DNA of 17,173 nt from a virus (IMGVR_UViG_2675903324_000013), one strand, 5' to 3'. Shown: positions 1,605 to 12,277, counted from the stretch's first letter. The notes: generated by a model from the letters alone, not told the origin. A program made the numbers and translations.

Positions 1605-1793
1605 GTGTTAAGCACTGATCGGTTTATACGTGAAAAAGAATGCGAAAAGCTAACAGGCCTTAGCCGCTCATGCCGCTACCGCCTGGAAAAGGCCGGACAA
1701 TTCCCATCACGTCGTAAACTTGGTGGGCGTTCTGTTGGCTGGTCTTTATCTGAGGTTTTGGCCTGGAAGGATAGCTGCAAGGCAGTTCACTAA
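1605..1793 (+). CDS. alpA: AlpA-family phage regulatory protein (small HTH activator / excisionase-like)
   Basis: GTG start 5 nt after a GGGGG Shine-Dalgarno; 62 aa with the AlpA pattern …LTGLSRS.RYRL…GQFP…KLGGRSVGW…EV..W. Confidence 0.85.
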   Translation: MLSTDRFIREKECEKLTGLSRSCRYRLEKAGQFPSRRKLGGRSVGWSLSEVLAWKDSCKAVH

Positions 1794-2036: not shown

Positions 2037-2240
2037 TCAGGCTGGTGGGCAATTACCTTGCTTGTTGGGGCCGTATTGTGCTGCCATTTTCATCCGTTCA
2101 GAACGTGAATATTTTTTTAGAAACTCATCAAGGACAAAAGCGCATGGAGCGAATCTTTCTGATTCATGCTCGAGCGCCATATTTTCGTGCTCTCTGTTCG
2201 TTTTTTGCGATGGTGTATTGGTTGATTCTTTATTGGTCAT
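2037..2240 (-). CDS. Hypothetical small protein, MTN… paralogue 1 (67 aa), possibly degenerate
   Basis: ORF whose start codon and first codons sit inside a 59-bp block conserved with the start of ORF 2698..2925 (both begin MTN); no clear Shine-Dalgarno; A-rich strand. Confidence 0.25.
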   Translation of the reverse strand: MTNKESTNTPSQKTNREHENMALEHESERFAPCAFVLDEFLKKYSRSERMKMAAQYGPNKQGNCPPA

Positions 2241-2293
2241 TGTGTGTACCTGTAAAGCAATGCGCCGGAGTTCCTCACGCCACGGCGCTGATG
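2235..2293. repeat. Conserved 59-bp block, copy 1 (ggtcat…ctgtaaagcaatgcgccg…cctcacgccacggcgctgatg)
   Basis: About 90% identical to 2920-2978; contains a 6-bp stem GCGCCG / CGGCGC with a 15-nt loop; spans the MTN start codon on the minus strand. Confidence 0.6.
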
Positions 2294-2297
2294 TTTT

Positions 2298-2402
2298 TTA
2301 TTCTTTGGGTTCAATACCGCGTTGCTGTAATTCTTTTCGGATTATTCGTTTTATCCAAGCTGCTAAAGAGTCATCACCGTCTTGTTGTTGTGCTTTTTCC
2401 AT
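2298..2402 (-). CDS. Very small ORF (34 aa, MEKAQQQDGDDSLAAWIKRIIRKELQQRGIEPKE); possible remnant of the C-terminal helix of an RHH-like repressor
   Basis: Occupies the same position relative to the conserved block as the RHH-like gene 2983..3162; weak C-terminal similarity (AAW/AAM…IKR…R); weak RBS. Confidence 0.15.
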   Translation of the reverse strand: MEKAQQQDGDDSLAAWIKRIIRKELQQRGIEPKE

Positions 2403-2465
2403 CTTTTCCCGTAAGTCAGGATCTAAACGGAACTGGAAAGGAGGATTACCACGCCTTTCATTTTT

Positions 2466-2520
2466 GTGTGTTGACACGTCAATTACACTCCATATAATGT
2501 GTTTATGTGTATATACACAT
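2466..2520 (+). promoter_or_regulatory. Near-consensus sigma70 promoter TTGACA (2471-2476), 16-bp spacer, TATAAT (2493-2498), flanked by GTGT-N4-ACAC operator-like sites
   Basis: Hexamers read directly. GTGTgttgACAC at 2466-2477 overlaps the -35; a 16-bp perfect palindrome ATGTGTATATACACAT at 2505-2520 overlaps the predicted transcription start. Confidence 0.5.
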
Positions 2521-2544
2521 TACACACAACTAGCACAAAAAACA

Positions 2545-2578
2545 ACGCCCCGCAGTGATGGGAACACATACGGGGCGT
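2545..2578 (-). terminator. Conserved stem-loop, copy 1: 8-bp GC-rich stem ACGCCCCG / CGGGGCGT with 18-nt loop; followed by a T-tract on the minus strand
   Basis: Homologous to 3293-3325 with one compensatory base-pair change in the stem and a near-identical loop (…GGAACACATA…). Confidence 0.4.
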
Positions 2579-2697
2579 CTAACCAAACCATTAATTGAGG
2601 TAACGATTATGGCTATAAAAGAGCATAGCTTACTCTTTATACACACACAAACGCCCCGGAAACGGAATAATCCGTTTCATAGTTCGGTTTTGTGTAC

Positions 2698-2925
2698 TCA
2701 TCCTGGCGGGCGATTCTTACGGGACTTTAGCCGCCGTGGGCAGCTTGCTAAAAATGCCTCCAACGCGAATAGTCCAGGTTTCATTTCTATCGGTATTAGT
2801 TGGATATTCAGAGGATTAGCCAGTTCGGCTTCAAGGCGAGCACAGGTTTCTAACTGCCTTTGCCGAATGATTTCATCTTCTTGCGTCTGCGTGTCTTGTA
2901 TTGGTGATAGTGTGTTGTTGGTCAT
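2698..2925 (-). CDS. Hypothetical small protein, MTN… paralogue 2 (75 aa)
   Basis: Start codon inside conserved block copy 2, directly downstream of the RHH-like gene on the same strand and in the same frame phase; helical-looking segment EDEIIRQRQLETCARLEAELAN. Confidence 0.35.
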   Translation of the reverse strand: MTNNTLSPIQDTQTQEDEIIRQRQLETCARLEAELANPLNIQLIPIEMKPGLFALEAFLASCPRRLKSRKNRPPG

Positions 2926-2978
2926 GGTACTGCCCTGTAAAGCAATGCGCCGTAGTACCTCACGCCACGGCGCTGATG
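2920..2978. repeat. Conserved 59-bp block, copy 2
   Basis: Same stem GCGCCG / CGGCGC (2947-2952 / 2968-2973); differs from copy 1 mainly in the loop and flanks. Confidence 0.6.
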
Positions 2979-2982
2979 GTGA

Positions 2983-3162
2983 TTATTCTGATTCTTTGGT
3001 CTTGCGGCGCTGGCGGCGTTTGATTTCGCCGCGCATGGCTGCGTTTATAAACTGCCCCGTGCTTTCACCTTCTTCTTTCACGTTCTCCATGCCTTCAATA
3101 ATTTCATGGGCAATACGTGCAGTTACAGATTGTGATTTTGCATTCTTTGGACCCGTTGCCAT
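2983..3162 (-). CDS. Putative ribbon-helix-helix (CopG/Arc/MetJ-like) DNA-binding protein; candidate switch repressor
   Basis: ATG at 3162 preceded by GAGGGG with 6-nt spacing. 59 aa with an N-terminal basic beta-strand (SQSVTARIA) followed by two helices (HEIIEGMENVKEEG / TGQFINAAMRGEI) and a basic tail. Operator-like boxes lie immediately upstream. The six-frame track start at 3201 lacks an RBS. Confidence 0.4.
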   Translation of the reverse strand: MATGPKNAKSQSVTARIAHEIIEGMENVKEEGESTGQFINAAMRGEIKRRQRRKTKESE

Positions 3163-3183
3163 GTTTAACCCCTCATGTTTTTG

Positions 3184-3264
3184 GTGTAAGACAATATACA
3201 CGAAAAAAAAATATTTTGAAGGGTTGACGTGTAAGACACCGTTATTTTACATTGTGTCTTACAC
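3184..3264. promoter_or_regulatory. Divergent promoter-operator region: three GTGTaagACAC boxes and back-to-back promoters
   Basis: Boxes at 3184-3193, 3229-3239 and inverted at 3254-3264. Leftward promoter: -35 TTCAAA / 16 bp / -10 TATATT (complement of 3193-3220). Rightward promoter: -35 TTGACG (3224-3229) with a weak -10 (TTACAT or TACATT) about 17-18 bp downstream. Confidence 0.45.
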
Positions 3265-3292
3265 CTTGTTAATGCAAGGTACAGAAAAGACG

Positions 3293-3325
3293 AAACCCCG
3301 CAGTGCTGGAACACATACGGGGCTT
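3293..3325 (-). terminator. Conserved stem-loop, copy 2: stem AAACCCCG / CGGGGCTT with 17-nt loop; T-rich tract on the minus strand
   Basis: Homologue of 2545-2578; lies in the 5' leader of the rightward operon and upstream of the leftward promoter. Confidence 0.4.
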
Positions 3326-3354
3326 CTAACCAACAACGTAAACTAGGAGCCGTT

Positions 3355-3552
3355 ATGGTTGCTGTAAATCATATACCACACCTTGTACACACACAAACTG
3401 CCTTTGTGTGGCGTTTTCTGGCACTGAGTGCCGGAGAATCTCAAATCATCCACGTCACCGCCTGGACGGAACGCGAAGCGCGTAGCCGTTGCCCGTCCGG
3501 TTGTGTTGCTGTATTTGCCGCCCGTATTCGTCAGGAGGTGCGCCATGATTAA
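3355..3552 (+). CDS. Hypothetical protein (65 aa), first gene of the rightward small-ORF operon
   Basis: AGGAG 6 nt upstream of the ATG; stop overlaps the next start (ATGATTAA); the first ~15 codons are conserved with a degenerate copy at 2609. Confidence 0.4.
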   Translation: MVAVNHIPHLVHTQTAFVWRFLALSAGESQIIHVTAWTEREARSRCPSGCVAVFAARIRQEVRHD

Positions 3553-3757
3553 TCTGTCACTTACTGACCTTAACCGCATTCAGTTTCGTGAGAAATTCAC
3601 AGGGCAGCTACTGGTCAATGTGGATAAAGGTCGCGTGGTGTGTAATTACTACTTACCAGATGAAGCAATTGTCGCCACAAGGGAATCATTACAGGAAATC
3701 ACAAAACGTGCCGGAATGATTAACACGAATATTCAGGGGATGCTTTATGCACAATAA
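3545..3757 (+). CDS. Hypothetical protein (70 aa)
   Basis: ATG at 3545 preceded by AGGAGG; the six-frame track ORF 3428..3757 has an upstream start without an RBS. Confidence 0.45.
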   Translation: MINLSLTDLNRIQFREKFTGQLLVNVDKGRVVCNYYLPDEAIVATRESLQEITKRAGMINTNIQGMLYAQ

Positions 3758-3986
3758 AACCACACCGGACGCAGCCGCCGAAGCCATCAAAACGCTGATG
3801 CACGCGCTGATTGATATTTCTGTTATCGCGGACAGGGCACATAAGCACGCCACCAGCGAAACAGAATATGCCGGGGCTTTCGTTCCTCACTCACTGGCTG
3901 TTATGCAATTTAGTGCTGATATGGCACTGAATGAGGCTAAAACCATCCTGATTACTGATTGTGAAAATGGGGGGGGTTATGCGTGA
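3747..3986 (+). CDS. Hypothetical protein (79 aa)
   Basis: ORF with GGGGA RBS; short overlap with its neighbours, consistent with an operon. Confidence 0.5.
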   Translation: MHNKTTPDAAAEAIKTLMHALIDISVIADRAHKHATSETEYAGAFVPHSLAVMQFSADMALNEAKTILITDCENGGGYA

Positions 3987-4212
3987 TGATCGTTTTAATT
4001 CCCTGAAACAAGAATTTTCCGGCGTTCCTGATGATGCGGCTGATGCGCTTTCGTCAATGCCAGAACTTATTAGAGCGGCTTTTTTCTTACTTTCCACGAA
4101 AGAATATAAATCAACGGGACTTGATGTACTGAATATCGCCGCCGATTATGCGGAATATGTGGCAGAGGCGCGTTACAGAAGAAAATTTCCTGAGGATGTA
4201 AGCCATGCGTGA
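3979..4212 (+). CDS. Hypothetical protein (about 77 aa; start uncertain, alternative GTG at 3961)
   Basis: ATGCGTGA overlap with the upstream stop; G-run RBS. Confidence 0.4.
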   Translation: MRDDRFNSLKQEFSGVPDDAADALSSMPELIRAAFFLLSTKEYKSTGLDVLNIAADYAEYVAEARYRRKFPEDVSHA

Positions 4213-4443: not shown

Positions 4444-4743
4444 ATGAAACTTAAATATTCTGGCTTAACTGCCAGTGGCAACACTCACCCTAAATTTACG
4501 CGCGGTGATATTTACCGCGACCAGTACGGCGGCACGGTAATGATTAAGGGCGTGGCGGGACGGTGCGTAACTTACCGCCGTGAAGGTTACGAATATGATT
4601 GCGTGATGCCTGTTTATCAGTTCCGGCGTGATTTTTCTCTGGTACAGACCGCGCCGCATAACGTGCCCACCAGCAACGCCAGGGCACGGGCAAACATCCA
4701 GAAGCTGAAAACCATGATTAACGGATTCAGGGGCAAGAAATGA
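4444..4743 (+). CDS. Hypothetical protein (99 aa)
   Basis: GGAGAA RBS; stop overlaps the rep start (ATGA). Confidence 0.5.
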   Translation: MKLKYSGLTASGNTHPKFTRGDIYRDQYGGTVMIKGVAGRCVTYRREGYEYDCVMPVYQFRRDFSLVQTAPHNVPTSNARARANIQKLKTMINGFRGKK

Positions 4744-6137
4744 AAAGCGCACCGAACTTAAAAAAACAGCCTTACGACAAGATGACCGAAGTCATCATTT
4801 TTGCGGGTAGTGATGCGTGGGCACATGCGAAACAGTGGCAGGAACAGGACGGGCGACTGGCTGGCGATAATGTGCCTCCCATTGTGCTGGCTGATGATCA
4901 ACTGGATGAACTGGCAGACCTGAGAATCATCGACGAGGGGCGCTATTGTGTCCGGCTGTACAAGGCAGGCCACATCAGGCCATCAAATATTAATGCCATT
5001 GCGCACAAGCTGGCGGCGGCGGGCGTAACTGATGCGAATTATTACCCCGAAGGGATACACAGCCAGAAGCGGGAGAACTGGCGCGAATATCTGGAACGGG
5101 AGCGGGGGAAAAAGCCAGGGGAAGAACACCACCAGCGAAAAACCACGCTACCGATGAGCGTTGGATCTGCCGGATATGACACGCAATTAGATTACGTGGT
5201 AAAGGGGATTATTCCGGCATCGTCGCTATGCAGCATATACGGGGCAAGCGGTTCCTATAAATCATTCCTTGCGGGTTCGTGGGCGTGTCACGTTTCCACG
5301 GGCCGCCAGTGGGGAGGCCGCAGGGTGGCGCATGGCGCTGTTCTCTATGTGGTTGGTGAAGGCGGTATCGGCGTTCCGCGTCGTGTAAAAGCCTGGGAGG
5401 TTGTGCACGGTGAGCAGGTGAAAAATCTGTATCTGGTAAACCGTCCAGTTTTTCCGGCTGTCCCGCTTGATGTTGATGAACTGGTTATCGCTGCCCGTCA
5501 GGTGGAGCGGGAAACGGGTAAACCTGTACGCATGATTATTCTTGATACTCTGGCGCGTTGCTTTGGTGGCAATGATGAAAATGATTCCCGTGATATGGGG
5601 GCGTTTATCCGTGGGTGTGACGAGCTTAAACGGCGCACAGGGGCCACGGTGCTGGTGGTTCACCATTCCGGCAAGGATGAGACGAAAGGCGCGCGCGGTT
5701 CCAGTGCATTTCGTGCTTCGCTGGATGCTGAATACCGGATACGCAGGGAGGACGCAGGAAGCGAAGCGCTGGTTATCTCATGCACCAAAATGAAGGACGC
5801 GGAGGAACTCAAAGAGGCTGCCTATGATTTGCGGGTGGTGGAGCTTTTTACCGACGCTGACGGGGAGTTAATCACGTCGCTGGTGGTGGTGGATAAGCCG
5901 CGCCCTCCCGTTGAACTGGAGCGCATCGAGGAGGCAGGCAACAAGACGGAAAACCATACCGCACTATGGGGGTGCATCCGTTCACGCACACAGAACGGCG
6001 ACAAGTGCACGATCCCGCTGTTACGTGATGACATGAAACGGCTTGGGTATGACGTGAAAAATATGCGGCGATGGTTAGCCAAACTGGAAAAAGACGCCGT
6101 GATTTACATTGATGGTGATGATGTAGGACCACTGTAA
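4740..6137 (+). CDS. Replication protein: RepA-like / AAA_25-type RecA-fold ATPase with C-terminal presumed DNA-binding region
   Basis: P-loop-like motif GASGSYKS (non-canonical), Walker-B-like RMIILDTLAR, and LVVHHSGKDETKGARGSSAF typical of RepA/AAA_25 helicase-loader proteins; immediately followed by an iteron array. Confidence 0.65.
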   Translation: MKSAPNLKKQPYDKMTEVIIFAGSDAWAHAKQWQEQDGRLAGDNVPPIVLADDQLDELADLRIIDEGRYCVRLYKAGHIRPSNINAIAHKLAAAGVTDANYYPEGIHSQKRENWREYLERERGKKPGEEHHQRKTTLPMSVGSAGYDTQLDYVVKGIIPASSLCSIYGASGSYKSFLAGSWACHVSTGRQWGGRRVAHGAVLYVVGEGGIGVPRRVKAWEVVHGEQVKNLYLVNRPVFPAVPLDVDELVIAARQVERETGKPVRMIILDTLARCFGGNDENDSRDMGAFIRGCDELKRRTGATVLVVHHSGKDETKGARGSSAFRASLDAEYRIRREDAGSEALVISCTKMKDAEELKEAAYDLRVVELFTDADGELITSLVVVDKPRPPVELERIEEAGNKTENHTALWGCIRSRTQNGDKCTIPLLRDDMKRLGYDVKNMRRWLAKLEKDAVIYIDGDDVGPL

Positions 6138-11544: not shown

Positions 11545-11837
11545 CAGAAGAACTTATCACCCTGGAAGAAGTGAAACTCCATTGCCGTATCGATGGAGAC
11601 GAGGAAGACCAGTTAATCAGCGGATACATTGCCGCATCGCTTGAGGCGTGCCAGATACACATAGGCAGGCGCTTTGATGACGGGCTGGAGTTCACGCCAG
11701 CCATAAAGATTGGCTGCATGATGTTTATCGCTCACCTGTATGAGAATCGCCAGATTGTCGCGGATAACGCAAAAACACGCGTACCCATGACGATTGGCGC
11801 ACTCTGGACGGCTTACCGTGATGTGGGGGTGTACTGA
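11541..11837 (+). CDS. Head-tail connector protein, gp6-like
   Basis: …LEEVKLHCRIDGDEEDQLISGYIAAS…AHLYENRQ…, typical of gp6-like connector proteins; GAGGG RBS. Confidence 0.7.
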   Translation: MTEELITLEEVKLHCRIDGDEEDQLISGYIAASLEACQIHIGRRFDDGLEFTPAIKIGCMMFIAHLYENRQIVADNAKTRVPMTIGALWTAYRDVGVY

Positions 11838-12277
11838 TGCCGTGGCAACCATTAAGACGATGCACAGAACCAGGCTGTAACAGGCGCGTTAAATCCGGCA
11901 AGTGTGAGGAGCACAGGCGGGCGGCATGGCGTGCAGAGGATGCCAGACGAGGACACCGCCGCGCGCGTGGATATTCCAGACAGTGGGACAAATACCGCGC
12001 CATGTATCTGAGTAAAAACCCGTTATGCGTGCGATGCCTTGAGAAGGGGATATATACGCCCGCCGTGGTGGTGGATCACATTATCCCGATTAATGGCGGT
12101 GATGATGTTCTCTTCTGGCCCGAATGGAACCATCAACCATTGTGCCAGGCGTGTCATAACCAGAAAACGAAATGGCTTGATCCGGCAACAAAAAGCAAGC
12201 GTGCCGCAGGTGGATTTCGTGAAGAGGAAGAACGGGCCGCTAACCGCAATAACTGGATGTATGACGCTGATGAATGA
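11837..12277 (+). CDS. HNH endonuclease (packaging-associated)
   Basis: Cys-rich N-terminus and …CVRC…VVDHIIPINGG…NHQPLCQACHNQKT…; GGGGG RBS; located just upstream of terS as in HNH-dependent cos packaging systems. Confidence 0.85.
   Translation: MPWQPLRRCTEPGCNRRVKSGKCEEHRRAAWRAEDARRGHRRARGYSRQWDKYRAMYLSKNPLCVRCLEKGIYTPAVVVDHIIPINGGDDVLFWPEWNHQPLCQACHNQKTKWLDPATKSKRAAGGFREEEERAANRNNWMYDADE

Follow-up and report, generated by a model that had tools for sequence, protein, structure and literature searches.

A ribbon-helix-helix protein of the YlcI/YnfO family as a candidate autoregulated repressor with exchangeable operators in Gram-negative PICIs

Results

Gene content of the island

The DNA that we analysed, hereafter the window, is a stretch of 17,173 nt whose gene content is that of an E. 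coli chromosomal island, and other E. coli genomes carry close relatives of it between roxA and phoQ. It encodes an integrase, AlpA, a replication gene and a complete head and packaging set, comprising capsid, S78 protease, portal, head completion and connector proteins, HNH, TerS and TerL. No Pfam match to a tail protein was found among the scanned ORFs of the window, and phoQ follows directly. This content matches the one described for capsid-forming PICIs (10.1101/2022.09.08.507074) and, on the basis of its genes, with tail genes not matched, the window is a cf-PICI. The HNH endonuclease gene (11837-12277) is located just upstream of TerS/TerL in the packaging module of this satellite. Such an arrangement is typical for HNH-dependent cos packaging. 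The genes with which this study is mainly concerned are the following:

1-1230: P4-type integrase gene
1605-1793, plus strand: alpA (Pfam Phage_AlpA, E 5e-18), convergent with the leftward RHH transcripts
2698..2925, minus strand: ORF of 75 aa that follows the RHH gene on the leftward transcript and has no family
2983..3162, minus strand: candidate repressor gene, coding for a 59-aa RHH protein of the YlcI/YnfO family, with its ATG at 3162
3355..3552, plus strand: gene of an Icd-like protein (NCBIfam NF033153, E 5.8e-18), first in the rightward operon
4740-6137, plus strand: gene of a RepA-family helicase (Pfam AAA_25)

In the rightward operon, the Icd-like gene is followed by small ORFs, DUF4222, the RepA-family helicase and SSB, as assigned from Pfam (AAA_25 and SSB) and from the RefSeq annotation of relatives. 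The alpA gene lies upstream of the regulatory cassette described below, points to the rightward operon and is convergent with the RHH gene. On the minus strand, terminator-like hairpins with a T run are present at 1797-1819, between alpA and a leftward 67-aa ORF, and probably mark the ends of leftward transcripts.

A predicted ribbon-helix-helix protein

The candidate repressor comprises 59 residues, MATGPKNAKSQSVTARIAHEIIEGMENVKEEGESTGQFINAAMRGEIKRRQRRKTKESE. Although the ORF list extends its reading frame to a GTG at 3201, we placed the start at the ATG at 3162 because the homologues and the RefSeq annotation begin at MATG. Judged by its score against the NCBIfam model NF041551 (64.7 bits, with a cutoff of 30, residues 9-50 covering positions 1-42 of the 42 in the model), the protein is a member of the YlcI/YnfO family. 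It also matches two PHROGs of unknown function. None of the small proteins, the RHH protein included, gave a Pfam match; a sequence-profile search of the PDB returned no solved structure of a relative, and a Foldseek search of the PDB with the small RHH model returned no match. The homologues fall into 92 clusters, all of them from Enterobacterales.

An earlier note on this DNA had put forward this protein as a candidate repressor of the ribbon-helix-helix (RHH) type, and structure prediction bears out the fold. The AlphaFold model of the monomer (50 homologues) has a pLDDT of 86, with residues 10-17 extended and helices at 19-28 and 35-58. Proteins of the RHH (MetJ/Arc) superfamily are obligate dimers whose ribbon, made of two antiparallel strands, inserts into the major groove; DSSP calls no strand in this monomer model, from which the partner chain is absent. 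Its top structural neighbours are nearly all RHH proteins, namely CopG-family CopA, ORF56, AmrZ, omega, Arc, TacA, NikR and PutA. In the RHH motif, a G-x-S/T/N turn joins the two helices, and helix 2 points its N-terminus at the DNA backbone. The 59-aa protein likewise combines an N-terminal strand and two helices with such a turn, in which, across 50 homologues, G32 is nearly invariant and E33, S34 and T35 are invariant. With good confidence, the model thus predicts a ribbon-helix-helix fold. Alignment with Arc by hhalign was not significant (probability 4.8%), with the strand and helix 1 aligned in register; in this non-significant register, residues 12, 14 and 16 stand opposite Arc Q9, N11 and R13, which are the base-contacting residues of Arc.

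Promoters and repeated boxes in the intergenic region

Two divergent promoters and three boxes are found between the RHH gene and the Icd-like gene:

3184-3194: O1 (box 1), reading GTGTAAGACAa on the plus strand, with one mismatch, and TTGTCTTACAC on the minus strand
3193..3220, minus strand: leftward promoter of the RHH gene, with TTCAAA at 3220-3215 and TATATT at 3198-3193, separated by 16 nt
3224..3253, plus strand: rightward promoter of the Icd-like/replication operon, with TTGACG at 3224-3229 and TACATT at 3248-3253, separated by 18 nt
3229-3239: O2 (box 2), GTGTAAGACAC on the plus strand
3254-3264: O3 (box 3), GTGTCTTACAC, inverted, i.e., the reverse complement of GTGTAAGACAC

The promoters and their starts are predicted sigma-70 elements, assigned from consensus and conservation, and the two -35 elements stand back to back, 4 bp apart. 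By itself, a scan for the promoter consensus was not above chance (8 sites, with 6.5 expected), and the assignment was therefore made on conservation in the 51 loci described in the next section. There, the rightward -35 reads TTGAnn in all 51, with TAnnnT following 17-18 nt later in 44 of them; the leftward -10 (TATAnT) holds a fixed position in 49/51, and the leftward -35 is poorly conserved. Another leftward candidate, at 3272..3244 (TTAACA-17-TAAAAT, 10/12), which looks stronger by consensus, was rejected, as it is not conserved and its start would fall upstream of O2.

Three boxes on the core elements of divergent promoters, in a compact switch layout, had been claimed at 3184-3264. Our scan of the sequence recovered them at these positions. 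With at most one mismatch, GTGTAAGACAC matches three times in the 17 kb window, always within the same 81 bp (0.19 expected), and none of 200 shuffles reached three such matches. When two mismatches are allowed, the count (5, with 3.3 expected) is not significant, and hence the signal consists of the three near-perfect clustered copies. The degenerate O1, which is the weaker copy, covers the predicted leftward start and reaches into the leftward -10, with which it has that element's last 2 nt in common. The first base of O2 is also the final base of the rightward -35, and the box fills the spacer, so the claim that this box overlaps the -35 holds only in that it touches the element, which it does not cover. 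O3 comes directly after the rightward -10 and covers the predicted rightward start. The switch layout itself stood up well, and it recurs in 50 other loci.

We also observed an inverted repeat, ACCTTG-N6-CAAGGT (3263-3280), immediately behind O3, where the predicted rightward transcript has its 5' end. Other loci have equivalents of different sequence and, in those with an O2-O3 spacing of 34-36 bp, the inverted repeat flanks O3 itself, e.g., CATAGGTG...CACCTATG.

Co-variation of the protein and the boxes

A scan of one genome per species yielded 51 loci that encode relatives of the RHH protein, spanning Escherichia, Citrobacter, Enterobacter, Serratia, Yersinia, Pectobacterium and Xenorhabdus. 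In essentially all of them, O1 lies at -32 from the ATG of the RHH gene and is fused to a conserved GTATACTG. The first base of O1 is usually C or T, since this base is common to O1 and the -10. O2 is found at -77 and is followed by TCAA, the complement of the TTGA of the rightward -35, and the distance between O1 and O2 is 45 bp almost without exception. O3 is present in every locus, 22-26 or 34-36 bp beyond O2 and in either orientation; the O2-O3 spacing is not phased, which is neutral on cooperativity. This comparison also qualifies two details of the original description. The pattern of two direct boxes and one inverted box is true of the window but is not conserved, since O3 is direct in about half of the loci. 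Similarly, GTGT-N3-ACAC fits the boxes of the window, whereas the consensus across loci is nTG-N5-CAC, in which the outer bases alone are constant.

The 5-bp core of the box occurs in about 14 types and is near-identical among the three boxes of a given locus, with a mean distance within a locus of 0.44 of 5 nt. Between loci, the core distance is 3.36 when the beta-strand class of the protein differs and 0.38 when the class is the same, and the outer 6 nt differ by 0.36 of 6 between classes. Like these outer bases, R16 is invariant in the RHH homologues. The boxes stand within 100 bp of the RHH gene, and therefore linkage alone yields some co-variation. Mutual information, computed between single columns of the intergenic alignment and the beta-strand class, was not informative, since the 45 sequences fall into 19 classes and every variable column then has a high value; for this reason, we turned to within-locus concordance and to a partial Mantel analysis. 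The latter gave r = 0.60 (p <= 0.0002) between core and beta-strand given the rest of the protein. The partial correlation of the core with the rest of the protein given the strand was 0.24, and the value for the spacer DNA was 0.13. Moreover, proteins with a similar backbone and a different strand go with different boxes, as seen in the window and a related locus (L003). The matched strand residues 12-16 and box cores are as follows:

SVTAR or SITVR: core TCTTA
MTTVR or MTTIR: core AAATA
LFTVR: core AAACA
QLNAR: core AATCG (operator GTGAATCGCAC)
QVNVR: core AATAG
QxSVR: core AACAC
ALKAR or SLKSR: core TGGCC
KLQAR or KVQAR: core GA(C/T)TC
KLEAR: core TCAGC
RFDVR: core TCGGA

The same correspondence also holds in an E. 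coli O157 locus (L054) and in EcCICFT073. Across these alignments, the box core tracks strand residues 12-15, and we predict that the operator sequence is read through the side chains of the strand.

Exchange of the cassette among satellites

The variant of the cassette that is present in the window occurs, over most of its length, in 63 of 5426 E. coli genomes. The adjacent leader and the start of the Icd-like gene, with 97% identity, are found in many more E. coli genomes than the cassette. Judged from sequence comparison, the regulatory cassette is exchangeable between elements. The cf-PICI of E. coli O157 FDAARGOS_293 (L053), which occupies the same roxA/phoQ site, encodes an Icd-like protein with 65/66 and an AlpA with 62/63 residues identical to those of the window, and has neither the RHH gene nor such boxes. 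In front of the same leader hairpin, the region at 3920-3990 of this locus holds a TTGACA promoter with two direct CATGGTAATTACC repeats, which represent a third operator type.

EcCICFT073, the prototype of the Gram-negative PICIs, encodes an AlpA that is identical to that of the window at 60 of 63 residues, and its boxes are different. Its RHH protein belongs to the ALKAR class, and the boxes read GTGTGGCCCAC, GTGTGGCCCAC and CTGTCCCCCAC. The cassette, at 5474-6053 of our locus L136 (NC_004431.1 1380473-1381052), comprises a YlcI/YnfO gene and a divergent Icd-like gene; these two small genes bear late-assigned locus tags (C_RS30120 and C_RS30125) that are out of series with those of their neighbours. 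By tblastn, a homologue of alpA convergent with the RHH gene was detected in 27 of the 51 loci, and the 75-aa ORF gave no match in the 51 loci.

A neighbouring cassette with an Arc-like gene

Between alpA and the YlcI/YnfO cassette lies a second cassette, which is not homologous to it and has the following features:

2298..2477, minus strand: gene of an Arc-like 59-aa RHH protein (PHROG 228 'Arc-like repressor', E 1.5e-6)
2466..2520, plus strand: control region with a perfect TTGACA-16-TATAAT at 2471-2498
2466-2477: GTGT-N4-ACAC box lying exactly on codons 1-4 (GTG TCA ACA CAC) of the Arc-like gene
2507-2518: GTGT-ATAT-ACAC palindrome (GTGT-N4-ACAC) on the start

The Arc-like protein matches NF041551 weakly (E 5e-4, 20 bits, below the cutoff of 30). 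We compared it with 80 close relatives on IMG/VR contigs, many of about 8-17 kb and others of up to about 95 kb. The earlier note had listed the boxes at 2505-2520 and 2466-2477 as a paralogous operator set. The first, a palindrome of 16 bp, was confirmed in the window and is real, its GTGT-N4-ACAC motif being kept in 76 of the 80 relatives. The second is ambiguous, as it overlaps coding sequence, and its conservation over the GTG start codon in 71/80 relatives is confounded by coding constraint. GTGTAAT half-sites in the same control region are also conserved among relatives. The strand of the Arc-like protein is invariant among the 80 relatives.

Downstream, the leader hairpin of the YlcI/YnfO cassette recurs in the second cassette, and behind it stands an Icd-like ORF truncated to 25 codons (2610-2687). 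The two cassettes (2240-2925 and 2925-3400) stand in tandem and have their flanks alone in common. On the left, these consist of a ATGACCAA start with a GCGCCG...CGGCGC hairpin and, on the right, of a CCCCG...CGGGG hairpin with the 5' end of the Icd-like gene. This arrangement looks like the outcome of exchange or stacking by recombination at conserved flanks. A conserved block of 45 nt with the hairpin GCGCCG-N15-CGGCGC was observed between each RHH gene and the next MTN... ORF (2249-2295 and 2934-2980). The first copy is followed by TGATGTTTTTTATT on the plus strand, and this block could terminate transcription from alpA.

Structure in the Icd-like leader

Opposite the leader of the Icd-like gene, we predict one further element:

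3278..3366, minus strand: predicted cis-antisense RNA of about 80 nt

The leader, which extends from O3 to the Icd-like start, is conserved; it has two hairpins, and 11 of their 13 pairs show compensatory changes. Read in the sense direction, the non-canonical cells amount to 24 A.C against 3 G.U, an excess that becomes G.U on the antisense strand. In agreement with this, the antisense strand folds at -33.6 kcal/mol (z -4.47 vs shuffles) and the sense strand has a z of -1.68. Hence, from base pairing and folding, the structure seems to be selected on the antisense strand. The loop of the antisense 5' hairpin reads CUCCU, an anti-Shine-Dalgarno sequence, and the 3' hairpin (3296-3325) is followed by a U run. 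A -10-like TATGAT is located at 3375-3370; in most of 39 loci the position of this hexamer does not change, although the hexamer overlaps conserved codons. The antisense fold, the U run, the anti-Shine-Dalgarno loop and the placement of the -10-like hexamer lead us to predict a sar-like cis-antisense RNA directed against the ribosome-binding site of the Icd-like gene. A copy of the leader is found in the second cassette (2535-2625). Rfam searches returned chance-level matches only, with no family at the gathering thresholds for the whole window or at E up to 10 for 2200-3600, and the models of the C4 and isrK immunity RNAs had no match in the window.

Inside the Icd-like ORF (3390-3420, plus strand), we also noted a terminator-like hairpin, CACACAAA-CTGCC-TTTGTGTG, followed by GCGTTTTCTG. 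A translation-coupled attenuator at this hairpin (3390-3410) was considered and dropped, as the hairpin is present in 1 of 39 loci and is probably not a conserved attenuator.

Discussion

The arrangement described here makes it likely that the 59-aa protein is an autoregulated repressor of the replication operon, acting at three 11-bp operators and existing in exchangeable specificity classes. We infer its binding, the sign of regulation, the stoichiometry and the lifting of repression as follows. The RHH protein would bind the three nTG-N5-CAC operators, probably with one dimer per site. Occupation of O2, in the promoter spacer, and of O3, on the start, would shut off the Icd-like/replication operon. 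At higher levels, the protein would also bind the degenerate O1 and limit its own weak promoter, resulting in negative autoregulation. The constant outer bases of the boxes are probably read by constant parts of the protein, e.g., the invariant R16 and the conserved N-terminal arm, and the variable 5-bp core by the variable beta-strand residues 12-15. In this way, many specificity classes could exist without cross-reaction, as is the case with phage immunity regions.

The most plausible route for the lifting of repression would be AlpA-driven transcription that starts upstream and runs convergently through the RHH gene into the operon. Such read-through would bypass the repressed promoter and disturb the expression of the repressor, and we infer it to be the simplest link between the two. 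Helper phages switch on alpA, and expression of AlpA alone induces EcCICFT073 (PMC6092414). Since AlpA overexpression is by itself sufficient for induction in that element, the RHH protein, if it is a repressor, can be bypassed. According to the literature, related satellites that lack the cassette, among them the O157 cf-PICI from the roxA/phoQ site, are mobilised normally, which indicates that the cassette is not essential for the life cycle of PICIs.

A broader proposal, which we hold only tentatively and with less than even weight, is that the YlcI/YnfO protein serves as the immunity repressor of many Gram-negative PICIs, EcCICFT073 included, through O2 and O3. In this case, two or three strand residues would set a dozen or more classes that do not cross-react, and satellites of different classes could coexist. 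Helper-induced AlpA transcription through the repressor gene would override the repression, and the sar-like antisense RNA would act as a second lock.

Alternatively, the RHH protein might bind the boxes and yet act as an early, Cro-like fine-tuner or as an activator of its own weak promoter from O2, whose centre is about 48 bp before the leftward start, with the lack of AlpA alone keeping the island silent. This would account for a leftward promoter that has a conserved -10 and a poor -35, as in activator-dependent promoters. It would also agree with a literature that credits induction to AlpA only (PMC6092414; 10.1101/2022.09.08.507074) and with the existence of PICIs that lack the cassette. 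We nevertheless consider it unlikely. In every locus, O2 is inside the rightward core promoter and O3 on the start, positions that mean repression; moreover, transcription of the RHH gene leads away from the replication operon, as it does for Stl, cI and Mnt, and diversification into many specificities is typical of immunity repressors. Even less probable is that the boxes are read by another factor, such as AlpA, the Icd-like protein, the integrase or a host protein, and that the RHH gene just travels with them. Tight linkage could indeed produce co-variation in the absence of any interaction, and the PHROGs that match the Icd-like protein are labelled 'transcriptional repressor'. Nonetheless, AlpA and the Icd-like protein were rejected as readers because near-identical copies of them accompany different boxes or none at all. 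A host factor leaves the roughly 14 core types unexplained, the cores are tied more closely to the beta-strand than to the rest of the protein, and across the 51 loci the RHH protein is the sole conserved product of the cassette.

Two further explanations deserve hardly any credence when set against repression by the RHH protein. Were this protein a type II antitoxin, paired with the 75-aa ORF as its toxin and autoregulated through the boxes, a conserved toxin gene would be expected next to the RHH gene and co-transcribed with it. The 75-aa ORF has no family and is absent from 51/51 related loci and, in the O157 locus L054, the convergent alpA directly follows the RHH gene in its place; besides, two of the three boxes would control the divergent operon and not the RHH gene. 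On these grounds, a toxin-antitoxin module was rejected, as no conserved adjacent partner exists in the 51 loci. The other possibility is that the inverted O2/O3 pair works as a nucleic-acid hairpin, i.e., an attenuator, a terminator or a cruciform, and not as protein sites. In the window, the 11-nt arms are perfectly complementary around a loop of 14 nt, and a chance-level match to a miRNA-like Rfam model reflects this hairpin. This pairing does not extend to the family, for roughly half of the loci have O2 and O3 as direct repeats and the spacing of the two varies (22-26 or 34-36 bp), so that no O2/O3 hairpin is conserved. Furthermore, O2 lies upstream of the rightward start, and a third copy stands 45 bp away.

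The cassette offers a concrete and testable candidate for the repressor of Gram-negative PICIs, and it is present in the tractable EcCICFT073. A fold, a probable function and a DNA target can be proposed for a family so far annotated only by name. The approximately 14 natural protein/operator pairs, built on one scaffold, constitute a data set for the recognition rules of RHH proteins, and may also be a source of orthogonal repressor/promoter pairs. For the ecology of satellites, they bear on whether the satellites residing in one cell are mutually immune or independent.

Relation to known systems

Systems in which a small RHH repressor acts on repeated operators at divergent promoters are well known. 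Within the open-access papers and preprints that we searched, three aspects appear to be new, namely a role and a target for the YlcI/YnfO family, the presence of its cassette in Gram-negative PICIs including the prototype, and the series of matched protein/operator classes. The family (NF041551) owes its name to proteins encoded by DLP12 and Qin, two prophages of E. coli K-12; no function was described for it in these papers and preprints, and its definition is without the operator, the fold assignment and the satellite context proposed here. Likewise, open-access papers and bioRxiv returned nothing relevant for PICIs together with ribbon-helix-helix proteins or for a repressor of EcCICFT073.

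The immI region of phage P22 comprises the RHH repressors Arc and Mnt, the promoters Pant and Pmnt, and the sar RNA. It resembles our cassette in its small RHH repressors, its close divergent promoters, the placement of an operator within the -35/-10 spacer of the outward promoter, and autoregulation, which is predicted for our cassette. In the window, O2 occupies the spacer of the rightward promoter, and the gene of the putative repressor has a divergent promoter of its own. The predicted short antisense RNA, possibly directed against the ribosome-binding site of the first downstream gene, would extend the likeness to sar. In contrast to P22, where two repressors have one operator each, a single putative repressor is associated here with three 11-bp sites. 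In addition, our cassette has no antirepressor gene (ant); its first gene is Icd-like and the operon contains replication genes. The sequence similarity of the protein to Arc is not significant, and the host element is a satellite and not a phage.

In Gram-positive PICIs (SaPIs), the master repressors are of the Stl/Rpr type, and the Stl proteins are much larger than 59 aa and carry a helix-turn-helix domain. Stl keeps these islands silent (PMC6092414), and the RHH protein is likewise a candidate for silencing a phage-inducible island. In both cases, the gene is divergent from the excision and replication operon, with intergenic sites that here are predicted. Loss of a repressor of the Stl/Rpr type leads to induction independent of a helper. 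Stl is inactivated when it binds a helper-phage protein, and the 59-aa RHH protein is not known to have an inducer; the known trigger in Gram-negative PICIs is expression of AlpA. The immI region of P1 (c4 RNA - icd - ant) also has an icd gene that comes first after a structured leader under RNA control, as is predicted for the Icd-like gene here. In P1, C4 is a sense RNA processed from the same transcript, whereas in our loci folding favours the antisense strand, and the C4 and isrK models gave no match. We know of no RHH repressor at the c4-icd-ant promoter of P1.

Finally, CopG, omega and other plasmid RHH repressors, which are among the top structural neighbours of our model, act as dimeric RHH proteins on short repeats, direct or inverted, that overlap promoters. 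They differ in the length and number of their sites, which are 7-bp heptads for omega and a 13-bp pseudo-palindrome for CopG, whereas the predicted operators of the YlcI/YnfO cassette are isolated 11-bp sites placed 22-45 bp apart.
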